In this document: piece by piece, positions 8,687-53,401 of the stretch | Numbering within the stretch: position 1 is the first letter of the stretch | How the letters are laid out: every line of letters begins with the position of its first letter | Assembly (NCBI GenBank): GCA_965113315.1 | Contig: OZ220364.1 | Direction: 5' to 3' (one strand) | Length of the DNA stretch: 64,000 nucleotides | From: Podarcis vaucheri | Lineage: Eukaryota | Made by a program: the position numbers and the translations under genes | Notes under the pieces: model-generated | What the model was told of the DNA's origin: nothing | What the model saw: only the letters and a program-made list of their open reading frames with translations | Databases searched by the model: none

Positions 8687-9456
8687 TGTTTTTGTTTTTT
8701 AGCTTTTATTTATGAAATTTTGACAGTTTTTATACACACACGTTATACAATATCAATCATTGAACTCTTTTCTCAGTCCATCTCTCTATGGCATTCTATG
8801 GAAATCTTGATTTGCTGCATATCCTGATATTTCACCCATTATCTTCTCAAGTCTTCTTTTTTGATGTTATCTGCTGCTTATATGTTAACTCCTACTTGTA
8901 GGTTAAATTGTATATTGTACCCTTAAGTTAATCTCCGAAACACCTCCACTCTTCTCTTCTCTTTAACTCATCCTTATTCCTTAGTTTCGCGGTTATGGTT
9001 ACTAATTATATGTATTCTATCAATTTGTTCTGCCAAAACTCTTCTTCTTTCAGTTTTTTTGCATATACTATTCTAGCTGCAGCGGTTGTGTATAAAAATA
9101 TATTGAGTGCCTTTTTTGGAATGTCATCACCTATTATTTCCTCTGGTCTTTTGGGAAATGTGAGTTTTACAATCTTTTTAAATTCCATGTGAATCATTTT
9201 CCAATACTCTCTAGCGTACTTACATGCCCACCACATATGAATCAGGGTTCCCTCTACCTTCCAGCATAAATTAAACCCCCTTTTGTACATTTTCACTAAT
9301 TTGCTGGGTGTCAAGGAGCACTGGTACATCATCTTTTGTAGGTTTTCCTTAATAAGATAGCAGGCAGAGAAATTCATGGTTCTCCCCCATAATTTTTCCC
9401 ATGCAGACAATTCTATGTTGTAACCAATATCTATAGCCCATATTGTAATTGTTGCC
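8687..9456 (-). mobile_element. 5'-truncated L1-clade LINE (ORF2 C-terminus, 3'UTR, A-rich tail)
   Basis: CWK..GTLIHMWWAC zinc-knuckle region; AATAAA and A-rich tail on the minus strand; 14-bp TSD tttttgtacacatt at 8673-8686 and 9457-9470. Confidence 0.9.
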
Positions 9457-10004
9457 TTTTTGTACACATTATTCTGTTGACAGAATATATCACAAATGGT
9501 AAAGTGTAAATTTTGAAAAATACCTGTGTTTTGGTTCACATACTGTTTGAATTACGTAGATGCGCCTTTAAATGCAAACGGAATAAATTTCTCCTCCATC
9601 TTTAGTTGTCTTGCTACTATGCCTGCTCTGTGGGCCATTCATAGAAAAATCCATATACATATTCTCTGGAAGAATTGGGTTTTTGATCAGTGATCAGTGG
9701 TTGGGAGAGGCATGGAAGCTCTCTAATAAAGGTTTCTTCAGTGAGGCTTTTCTGATGTAAGTAGTTACTGACCTTAGAGGTGTACTCAGGAGAAATTTGC
9801 CTTTGTATTACACACAGATATTCCTGAACTGTAATATCTAACAACTGTCAAATCATTGCTAAACCAAGATAGACTTTGTTGTTCAGGTGAAACAGAAATG
9901 TTTTTAAAAGTTAACAAATAAAATACCTACAGAAATTAAGAAATCGAGTTCCAGGTTATATTGAAAAGCTAATCCCATCCCACAACAATATTTTATTGCA
10001 AGTA

Positions 10005-24347: not shown

Positions 24348-24459
24348 CTCAGAGATTGAAACAAACCCTAGAGCCTTGTGACACCGAATATCCAGCCTTT
24401 GTTTCTGAACGCACCATCAAGGAGACCACAGGCAATATTGATTGCGATGATTGTTTCAA
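24348..24459 (+). CDS. CACNA2D3: CACNA2D3 exon, (A)QRLKQTLEPCDTEYPAFVSERTIKETTGNIDCDDCF(K)
   Basis: gctttag| acceptor, AA|gtaagt donor; 112 nt. Confidence 0.97.
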
Positions 24460-35864: not shown

Positions 35865-38534
35865 TATCAGTCCAACTCTGCAAAACACCATCTCCTGGCC
35901 AAAACTGGTTCTGTATCCAGACTCTGAGAGCCTGGTGTGGCACAACAGTGATTTTTGGTGCTTGGAATGACTCTGCTGTTCCATCATTTTCCAGTGGGAA
36001 CTTTGGGTGATACCCAACATTATATGGGTATATTTCCTCTTCCTCTTCTTCCTTCTCCTCCTCCCCCAGCCTTCTTCTAAAGCAGATTTGATGTGTGTGA
36101 GAGAGGCTGTCAGTGGGAAAGAAAAAGAAAGGGCAGGGATGGGCAAATCTGTCTGTTTTCTGTCCTTAAGTTCAGTTCACCACTTTTCCACATCACTTTG
36201 CTATATTATTTTTTTTAATGCCCTCACAAAAATCATCACCATTTTAGTGAGCATTTCCCCTAATATAAACATTTTAATGCAATTTTGCCTCATTTATTAG
36301 AAGCCGTTTCACCTAATGCAATGCATTTTTGTGTTATTTTCACTAATATATGCACTTTTGTGACAGTTTCCCCTAAAAATATGCAACTTTGTACACTATT
36401 TTTAGTTATAGAATTGTACTGCAAAATTTGGAGAAGTGTGAATTTTGGTGGGTAGCTGCATTTCGATTTGTGCATTGTTTCAGAAAGTGCAAATTTCTGG
36501 GTTCATGTTAAAATGTGATCTAAATCAAAATTCTCTCCCATTTATTTTATTTATTTCTTTATAAAATTTGCACACCACCTTTCATCCAAATATCTCAAGG
36601 TTCACAGCATAAAAATTAATCTCCCATCACTAAGAATAGGAAGTCCAATTCTGCTGGGGTATCTGCTTCCCTGGCAGATGGGTGTAACTGGATATCATCA
36701 TTGTACTTTGTTATTAACTCATTTTTAGTTCGTAGAACAGTTGTTTGGAAGCTATGACAGAGGGGAAGATTCATAGTCCCCACCAGGGGAAAAATATTTT
36801 AGAATGAGGATCTCATAATGTATAAGTTGCAATCACTGAATAATATATCCAAGGAGTTTCTGCAAGATGCTAGAAATGTGTGATAGTAAAGGATTTTCTC
36901 TGAATATTTTAACATTCACCAAGGATAGATGGGAATTAATAAATATTTTGAACCTTATAGAAATGCACAGCTTTAATATAGGTGAAATGAAACATGTTTC
37001 CCATCATCTTTTAAACTTGTTTGATTTGGGCACTTTGGAAGCATTCTATACAGTATCTCTCTTATCTTAAAGCTTATTTATGATCTTCAATTTCAACTGT
37101 GCAGCAGAACATCTCAATGTCAAGAAGACATCTGCCTGTCACTTTTTCATCTGAGATTGCCTGATAAGTTGTCAAAACTGCACAAATCTATATGTGTTGG
37201 CTCTGATCCTCCTTTTATCTGTTTACTTTGGAAAGGCTTCATCAATGCTAGAGACTTAAATGAGCTTTGCAGATCAAAGGAGGCCCCAAAAAACTCTTGA
37301 ATGCATTTGTACTTAATATATAAATAAGAATTTGAAACATGACAGATTCTTTAAAGGAGCGTTTTGTAAACTTACAAAAAAATATCCTTTTCCAATTTGT
37401 TTTGGGGTGGGGAAATGAAAGTTTTTCTTAATAGCAATAACTCTTTGTATTAAAAACCATTTCAAGTCATTTCAGCCAGCCACCTCTCAGCATATCATAG
37501 TGTTGCATGCCACCCCAATCTCTGAGCGGCGTGAGATTCCAGGGATTCTGGGTGCTTACCTTTACAACCCACCCACCTGCAGACTTACAACAACAGCAGT
37601 GTCTAGTTTGAGATGCTCATACAGTGATATAAAGGCAAATATTTGTTATTACAGTTTAGGAACCTGTTTCATGCCTGGTCTGACTTTCTGTTCATCTCAT
37701 CCATTATTGTCCACTCTGAGTGACAGGGTTTCTGTCTTCCCATCACCTTCTTGCTGATTATTTAAACTGGAAAGCTACATGCCCCACCCACCTAAAAGAA
37801 AAAAGAAAATAAATGATCACTGTGTTTTTCCATTCAAGCCAATTCTTTTTCATGCAGATTAGTCAATGTGGGTTGAATGCAGGCATAGCCATGTTCAGAG
37901 TCAGCACAGGTGTCATCACTTTCAGTGTGCCTGCTCTAAGCATGACAGGTAAATACGGATCCAGTGTCTATGAGTGGGAGCCAACATTAGTCCTACTCCG
38001 AGTAGACCCATTGAAGTTACTGCATATGACTGACTTTGGCACCTTAATTTGAATGGATCTGCTTTGAGTAGGACTTGGCACTTTCCTTGCAGAAACCCAC
38101 TCTTTACCGGTAAATCAGAGCAAACTGAAAAAAACCTGAATTGCTGTTTGCTCCAATTCAGCAGTAAAGATAAGGTTTTCCTGGGGAAACCGGCAGGGGG
38201 AGAAAGAGAAGCACTCGGACATTGACCAGGAAAACATGGAGCTGTTCCTAGATAGCATGAGGCAAAAGATAAGGGTGGATGAGCCATACTGATTTCATGA
38301 GAACTTAGTAAATAAGAATCCCTAGGATTGCAGCCAAATACTTATGAGGAGTTGAGCACCAACCGCTAGACCATTCCAACATCTCAGATTCCATTGCATG
38401 AACATTATGTCAGTATATTTGAGTAGGATCGGCTTGCCAATTTAATGTTAACAGTGGAAGAGAGAACCTGTTGAAGGGATAAACTGTGTCAACATTTCCA
38501 CAGTTTCCTTTCTGTGGGGAGGAATCTGTGTATA

Positions 38535-51638: not shown

Positions 51639-51823
51639 CCAATAGTGAAGAATGCCTTAATCTTTATTGGTACCTTAGAAATCAAGGCTGGAATTCTGTG
51701 TACACACAACTGGTAGTAAGCATTTTGAACACAGTAGGCCTTACTTCTGAGTAAACATACATATGCAGGATTGTTTCCTTTGTGTTTCTTTGGCTGATAT
51801 TTGAATTGACTCTATTTTCGCAG

Positions 51824-51936
51824 GTCCTTTGTTATCCAGCAAATTCAAAACAGCAATCTCTTCATGGTGGTAGTAAGTAATGAATGCGACTGCGAGTCTG
51901 TTTTGCCAATTACCATGGAACCAATAGAAATAAGGT
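51824..51936 (+). CDS. CACNA2D3: CACNA2D3 exon, SFVIQQIQNSNLFMVVVSNECDCESVLPITMEPIEIR(Y), ending at a U12 AT donor
   Basis: ttttcgcag| acceptor; followed by ATATCCTTTT; 113 nt; frame is kept with the next exon only with the AT-AC boundaries. Confidence 0.95.
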
Positions 51937-52649
51937 ATATCCTTTTACTTGACGCCGGCACGACCTCAGACAAGCAATGCGAATTTTAGTAAAGTGTTCA
52001 AAGTAAATTGGTTTGCTAATTGACTGCATATAACCTCCCTGATCCCACACAAATGCAATTCCATCACCAAGAAAGCCAAATCTTGAGCACTTGTGAATTC
52101 AACAATAGCAGGTTTGCCACAGCCATAGTCTCTCTGCAGCAGTGGCAAGCTTGGGGCTGTGGCCAGTGCTCTTGGTAAGCACTTGCCTCAGTTATGCTCT
52201 TGGCAAGACAAGCAAGTCCAGAATGCAAAAAAAGTAAATGCGAGAGATGATAAAACTATACCTTTATTTGATGATTTATTTTATATTTTCTGTGTAGCAG
52301 AAGTGATGAGGTTTCACTTGATAGCATGCTAATAGTAGGGTCCTGGGAAGGGTGGCAAATCTGATATTCCAGATTTGTGGATTTCAGGACACACCTCTGC
52401 ACCAAACAGGAGTGCCAGCTTGGCCCCACGACTGTGGGTACCCAGGGCCGTGGGTGCCATGCAACATGCATGGCCCTGGCACTGAAATATGTGGGTGCCT
52501 GGGCACCCAGGGCCCCAGGGAGTTGGCACCTGTGGGGAGGTGGTACTGCAAGTAGATGCTCCTGTTTTGTGACAGGCATTCGACTAGAGGGAGTTTCTTT
52601 TAGCTTGATAAATCCTGATTTTTAAGGCATATCCTTAACTTCTGAGAAC
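51937..52649 (+). other. U12-type (minor spliceosome) AT-AC intron, 713 nt
   Basis: 5' end ATATCCTTTT; branch site TCCTTAAC at 52632-52639; 3' end AC at 52648-52649; no polypyrimidine tract; junction T|AT restores Tyr in IRYNESLKC. Confidence 0.93.
52407..52532. mobile_element. small hAT-like MITE inside the U12 intron
   Basis: ends CAGGAGTGCCAGCT / AGTTGGCACCTG; internal GTGGGTGCC and GCACCC repeats. Confidence 0.55.
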
Positions 52650-52732
52650 ATAACGAATCCCTAAAATGTGAACGCTTAAAATCCCACAAGATTAGAAGAC
52701 GTCCAGAGTCTTGCCATGGATTTCATCCTGAG
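52650..52732 (+). CDS. CACNA2D3: CACNA2D3 penultimate exon, (Y)[27 protein letters not shown]
   Basis: AC| acceptor, GAG|gtatgt donor; 83 nt. Confidence 0.95.
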
Positions 52733-53308
52733 GTATGTGTTTTAGTTTACATTGAAAAGGTCTGTTAAGAATGAGCAAAAGTGTATTTGTTCCTTTTCTG
52801 CATCTCCCACTGCCTTTCTTTTCTGCTAGGGTGCTTCATCGTTATCGCAGACTTGGTATACACAAGAAGGACTTTCCCACATTTCTTTCTCAAACAAGGG
52901 TGGCTAAGCCCCCGTTTAGGGGCCTGATCTGGCTCCCCAAGCAAATTTTTCTCACCCCATCCAATGATTTTGGTGGCAGGGGTCCAAAAAGAAAAGAGAG
53001 AGTGTGCTGGGGTGTGCAAAGCCTAATGCCTTAGTGGTTATTCATATTGCTCCCTCCCCCTGTTACCAGACCAGTCATTTGGTGAGCGAAGAGGGGACCG
53101 TGTGCTTCCTGTCTTTGCCTGTGGACAGATCTACACTCATGGTTTCTAGCATTAAGAAAGGGTTAAGGAAAGCTGTAAGGGTCACATTCCATTTAGCTTA
53201 GAACGTTAAAAATGTATTATTAAAATGTGTGTGTTGGTAAATATTGGCTTGGACGATTGTAACGCTCTGCTTTTCTCCCGCTTCACTTATTGTGGGTTTG
53301 TTTTTCAG

Positions 53309-53401
53309 GAGAATGCCAGAGAATGTGGTGGCGTTTTAGGCCTGAGTGCTAAGCCCGCTCTTCTTGTGCTTCCTCTGCTTCTGGCCGTTTTCTCAAGGTG
53401 A
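53309..53401 (+). CDS. CACNA2D3: CACNA2D3 terminal coding exon, ENARECGGVLGLSAKPALLVLPLLLAVFSR* (GPI-anchor signal)
   Basis: tttttcag| acceptor; CGG omega-site motif followed by a hydrophobic tail; TGA at 53399-53401. Confidence 0.96.
   Translation, partial: ENARECGGVLGLSAKPALLVLPLLLAVFSR

Follow-up and report, generated by a model that had tools for sequence, protein, structure and literature searches.

The penultimate intron of CACNA2D3, at positions 51937-52649 on the + strand of the window (i.e. the entire 64,000-nucleotide stretch of Podarcis vaucheri contig OZ220364.1 that was analysed), is a genuine and already catalogued U12-type AT-AC intron. It is very probably cut at exactly these boundaries in RNA-like contigs, with the minor spliceosome as the likely agent, and the GT and AG dinucleotides that overlap its ends are likely to be by-products without regular use. 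The donor, the branch site and the terminal AC all lie where the original prediction had placed them, and reading across the AT-AC join gives IRYNESLKC, as it had claimed.

Identity and exon structure of the gene

A search with the upstream exon returned 68 protein matches, among which every match with a subunit name was alpha-2/delta-3 and the best named ones were from squamates. The identity of the gene as CACNA2D3 (alpha-2/delta-3) is confirmed by this comparison of peptides, in that the exon peptides fit it rather than its paralogues. Alignment of a close full-length protein places 11 exons on the window's + strand, and the other donors of the gene that were inspected are of the major GT type. 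Neither exon flanking the intron matched any PDB sequence, and no domain was found in the two exons with Pfam. The exons that bear on the present analysis are as follows.

24348-24459, + strand: CACNA2D3 exon before a 27.4-kb major-type intron, located by tblastn with protein P0003, its flanks and the loose end of an X2 contig
51824-51936, + strand: CACNA2D3 exon of 113 nt, ending in phase 1 within a Tyr codon
52650-52732, + strand: penultimate exon of 83 nt, with GTATGT behind it as the major-type donor
53309-53401, + strand: last exon, coding portion only; 30 codons whose product has a hydrophobic tail, with a TGA at 53399

The 27.4-kb major-type intron (24460-51823) that precedes the exon carrying the U12 donor holds repeats, and lone U12-like donor motifs occur within it at 37382 and 49901, away from any exon. 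Further RTATCCT sites in the window also lie away from exon ends. A fragment resembling a LINE ORF is present at approximately 9176-9486, with a similar piece at another locus (L007), and many short repeats in the window are common to other loci.

Boundaries and splice signals of the intron

The elements of the intron are listed below.

51937-52649, + strand: U12-type AT-AC intron of CACNA2D3, 713 nt, the penultimate intron of the gene
51937-51946, + strand: U12 5' splice site ATATCCTTTT, following an exonic T and conforming to RTATCCTT
52632-52640, + strand: U12 branch site TCCTTAACT, with two A residues 12 and 11 nt from the end of the AC
52648-52649, + strand: 3' splice site in use, the terminal AC, seen as a joint in contigs

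The branch motif TCCTTAAC at 52632-52639 ends 10 nt before the end of the intron and is the sole + strand copy in the window. When 12 donor-acceptor pairs were tried, this AT-AC pair was the only one that restored both exons in full; another AT-AC pair stays open but loses 8 residues. A donor, a branch site and an AC within 1 kb arose in a fraction of 0.10 of 200 rough dinucleotide shuffles, so the splice motifs by themselves are only suggestive; the intron is settled as real by the unique full-exon restoration among the 12 pairs together with the AT..AC joint found in contigs of two sequencing runs, X1 and X2.

Measured from the two branch A residues, the AC is 11 and 12 nt away, the AG that the original prediction had proposed as a decoy acceptor 8 and 9 nt, and the next AC 16-17 nt. 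The distance to the AC is within the range of 11-13 nt expected of U12-type introns, which Turunen et al. (PMC3584512) describe as the optimum between branch site and acceptor in a text that also gives AT-AG as disfavoured. This distance rule would select the AC over the AG.

Both donor and branch site conform to the full U12 consensus, and the base at donor position +5 is C. These features make it extremely improbable that the major spliceosome handles this AT-AC intron, as it does in some sodium channel genes: such introns do exist, according to PMC2831892, but those described there have G at +5, and the paralogues of CACNA2D3 carry U12 signals as well.

The branch region had also been described as resembling a U12 donor. 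The lookalike ATATCCTTAAC is indeed present at 52629, but the likeness is absent from human CACNA2D3 and from the paralogues. As a real donor this site was rejected, with no CCTTAAC downstream on the + strand and no counterpart in human or in the paralogues.

Transcript evidence

Four runs were aligned to positions 51650-52950, using contigs from X1 and X2 and raw reads from X23 and X21. A joint from 51936 to 52650, with AT..AC at the ends of the 713 skipped bases, was found in contigs of X1 (depth 13) and X2 (depth 56.5), both presumed to be RNA, none of the candidate runs being recorded as such. The AT..AC cut can slide by 3 bases with the product unchanged. X1 and X2 seem to derive from related species, since several bases differ from the window. 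The raw-read runs X23 and X21 cover the exons to a depth of zero or approximately one read and show no joint. The junction by which the original prediction could be checked was present in contigs of two of the four runs, the other two barely covering the exons.

No joint from 51934 and no other splice joint at these exons is listed for the X1 and X2 contigs, from which rare variants are dropped. Low-level use of the exonic GT is possible, because contigs lose rare variants and the GT products are predicted targets of nonsense-mediated decay (NMD). Contigs that hold the intron have depths of 4.6-5.6; since the next major-type intron is similarly deep (5.1 in X2), they are not taken as selective retention and are uninformative on slow splicing.

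Minor-spliceosome components in the genome

U12 and U11 genes were each represented by two matches above the Rfam cut-off. Of these loci (G000 C29:42597806, C17:24850125, C26:26661572, and C1:102921884), the two U12 genes are nearly identical to each other, and the U11 pair consists of one gene and one degenerate copy. By eye, the U12 of this genome carries AGTAAGGA, the complement of TCCTTAACT with one A bulged, and the best U11 starts with AAAAAGGG, which pairs with donor positions +4 to +10 with one G-U pair. Removal of the intron by the minor spliceosome is likely in this animal. The binding of U11 to positions +4 to +10 of the donor and of U12 to the branch site would mask or out-compete weak major-type sites.

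Overlapping GT-AG sites

Three sites could serve major-type routes around the intron.

51935-51936, + strand: exonic GT, possible major-type donor AAG/GTATAT, formed by the last base of an AGG Arg codon plus T, without G at +5
52645-52646, + strand: decoy AG (GAG) of the original prediction, 8-9 nt from the branch A residues and part of the TGA that closes the 7-codon route
52625-52626, + strand: AG 23 nt before the end of the intron; joined to the exonic GT it inserts 7 codons, which in this genome include a TGA stop

The possible donor AAG/GTATAT matches the U1 consensus at 6 of 9 positions; two genuine CACNA2D3 donors score 7 and 8. Joining GT 51935 to AG 52646 reads AGA ACA TAA, and the immediate stop attributed to this pair was thus reproduced. 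As a working decoy the pair is not supported: it is not among the joints listed for the contigs, none of the 50 deposited models matches it, and two snakes and a turtle apparently lack its AG. The models of these three animals translate the end of the intron as C-E-H, where this genome reads stop-E-H; the decoy AG would therefore stem from a TGY to TGA change, and the pair is not a conserved unit. The GT also occurs in human CACNA2D3; the AG at -3, judging from these proteins, does not appear to be conserved.

One reading of the pair is a fail-safe, in which slow minor splicing diverts the transcript to GT 51935 and AG 52646, so that a stop arises 79 nt upstream of the final junction and the mRNA is degraded by NMD. 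The immediate stop, predicted to be NMD-competent, agrees with it, as does WDFY1, where cryptic major-type donors were activated once the U12 sites were weakened (as described in PMC1874599). However, the AG belongs to a GAG that follows the U12 branch site by 6-7 nt, the C-E-H of the two snakes and the turtle would leave no AG, the pair appears neither among the contig joints nor in any of the 50 models, and plain retention of the intron already gives a stop, so that a decoy is unneeded. We regard this reading as very unlikely; the decoy is an annotation hazard and probably not a mechanism.

The second route, the GT with the AG at -23, is the one further lead. In a U2/U12 twintron both routes are used. 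Drosophila prospero is named among these twintrons in a table of PMC2831892. In such twintrons, as here, major-type sites overlap a minor intron; at the present locus, in contrast, only the minor route was observed, and stops close the major routes nearby. A twintron-like overlap would have the major spliceosome join the GT at -2 to the AG at -23, adding 7 residues in snakes and turtles and leading here to a stop and NMD. The inserts of the models P0009 and P0010 (snakes) and P0019 (turtle) align with this route, which suggests that the AG is present in four reptiles including this one, and the GT is common to human. In addition, the survey underlying the Minor Intron Database (MIDB) ignored cryptic sites within 2 nt of canonical ones, a filter through which, on this reading, a twintron would have been missed by surveys. 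Against it, the joint is listed in neither X1 nor X2, the TGA closes the route in this genome, the donor is weak (6 of 9 U1 matches), the GT is absent in the alpha2delta-4-like paralogue and in Ile-bearing fish proteins, and the three models were produced automatically, a predictor that seeks GT-AG being expected to build just such models. We consider such an overlap improbable, and equally improbable the fuller proposal of an unrecognised twintron in which the GT and the AG at -23 have been kept and minor-spliceosome activity sets the ratio of normal alpha2delta-3 to a second product. If the GT were truly used, the locus would offer a compact test case of how the two spliceosomes compete over a single donor.

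The preferred explanation remains that the overlapping GT-AG likely arose by accident within coding sequence and does not act as a control switch, and the history of the codon before Tyr is consistent with this. The position preceding Tyr could be read in 62 proteins, with 6 junction-breaking models left out: 36 have Arg there, 23 have Met, and 3 have Ile. Met is found in shark, lungfish, coelacanth, and most of the ray-finned fish matches; the Ile-bearing proteins are from fish, and Ile codons cannot yield a GT. The alpha2delta-4-like paralogue has no GT at -2. The codon was probably ATG (Met) in early jawed vertebrates and would have become AGG (Arg) by one change in tetrapods. A GT is unavoidable where T follows ATG, and a single change turns ATG into AGG, so the GT is most simply a leftover, and it appears best explained as that of an ancestral Met codon. 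What speaks against a leftover is that the wobble G is kept in human and in this reptile although AGA would silently remove the GT, these two species being too few for a test.

In MIDB, a GT precedes ATATCC in 2 of 352 entries (human CACNA2D3 and mouse Tcea2), vs 6.1 expected from base frequencies (Fisher p = 0.06), in a set where human and mouse rows are not independent and where branch sequences may account for a few of the 352. A GT before AT-type donors is rare, though not significantly so, and this rarity weighs against the by-product reading. Before GT-type U12 donors a GT at -2 is common (74 of 959 GTATCC entries in MIDB), which favours that reading.

Mis-modelling of the junction in databases

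The 50 deposited models comprise 26 that read YNES, 14 that read YIL (into the intron), 4 that read YIES, 3 with a 7-residue insert, and 3 others; all 18 unnamed contig ORF calls run into the intron. The three insert models (two snakes and one turtle) match the GT joined to the AG at -23 in an open frame, and P0005, one of the three others, fits the GT joined to an AG within the next exon. The YIES reading is reproduced by a junction shifted by +4 or +5, the latter corresponding to the following feature.

51942-52654, + strand: annotation trap; moving the junction by +5 costs one mismatch, makes its ends CT..AC (GT-AG if read from the opposite strand) and changes YNES to YIES

A shift made by the aligner would account for the YIES models. 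The expectation that predictors restricted to GT-AG mis-model this junction was borne out in that 24 of the 50 deposited models differ, a proportion that is not a census, since the matches are cluster representatives; none of them differs through the pair named in the original prediction, which predictors would avoid because of its stop.

The human intron and earlier records

The suggestion that the intron may already be catalogued in mammals proved right. MIDB (Olthof et al. 2019, PMC6717393) lists, in its file 1 row 759 and file 8 row 415, a minor intron of human CACNA2D3 at chr3:55073558-55073776, 219 nt in length, with the same GGT/ATATCC donor. The 12-base donor of the human intron, GGTATATCCTTT, is identical to window positions 51934-51945 and therefore includes the same overlapping GT, and the branch core CCTTAACT is common to both introns. 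They differ in length (713 nt here vs 219 nt in human) and in the bases preceding the branch site (ATAT here vs CATG in human). As the terminal AC and the exon number are both missing from the MIDB table, the orthology of the human and reptile introns rests on the donor context and the position across vertebrates. That position is conserved in the four paralogues, and 32 of the 68 proteins (from coelacanth, fish, frogs, birds, and panda) show a YIL read-through that agrees with the same donor. The same row 759 labels CACNA2D3 as human-only and not mouse (PMC6717393); the mouse gene may carry an annotation error at this intron, since the donor signature recurs across vertebrates. File 6 of MIDB, which covers alternative events, has no CACNA2D3 entry, and the method as described in PMC6717393 skipped cryptic sites within 2 nt of the canonical ones.

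Regarding the family, all four alpha2delta genes are given as minor-intron genes by Baumgartner et al. (PMC6865273) and likewise in PMC8767276, and CACNA2D1, 2 and 4 are listed as such in PMC7507305. The minor intron is present in all of CACNA2D1-4, as it is in the four paralogues of this genome (phase 1, aligned position). The intron and the minor-intron status of the family are thus already known and in print. A full-text literature search combining CACNA2D3 and minor splicing found no paper, and the supplements of PMC8767276 and PMC7367187 gave no match; the CACNA2D3 minor intron is catalogued, yet no dedicated study was found in the full-text search. A degenerate donor pattern searched in metagenome contigs gave 25 matches, none of which was homologous.

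Minor introns of the alpha2delta paralogues

Three more alpha2delta loci were found elsewhere in this genome, each with a phase-1 U12-type intron at the aligned position.

D1-like intron: GT-AG, 1749 nt, U12-type
D2-like intron: GT-AG, 2609 nt, U12-type
D4-like intron: AT-AC, 2087 nt, with the weaker donor ATATCTTT and without the exonic GT

The D1, D2, and D4 labels are our own putative assignments from the known family sequences; that of D4 also rests on the exon end AAT, which is common to the human table row. Across the four loci (C29:5541387, L005; C10:77226790, L006; C29 near 56709285, L003; and window position 51937), the D1-like and D2-like introns are GT-AG, vs AT-AC for the D3 and D4-like introns. 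On the aligned sequences, the intron subtype has thus switched between one half of the family and the other. Subtype switching of minor introns is described in general in PMC2831892 and PMC3584512; for the alpha2delta family no description of it was found in the literature passages searched. The donor of the D4-like intron (L003, minus strand) is ATATCTTTG, with T at +6, and human and mouse CACNA2D4 have ATATCC; by this comparison it appears to be a weakened U12 donor in this reptile.

Significance

The biological weight of the finding is small, as the intron and the status of the family were already in print. Its consequence is practical: approximately half of the alpha2delta-3 models retrieved are wrong at this junction, near the C-terminus, and some lack the C-terminal tail, which presumably carries the GPI-anchor signal.
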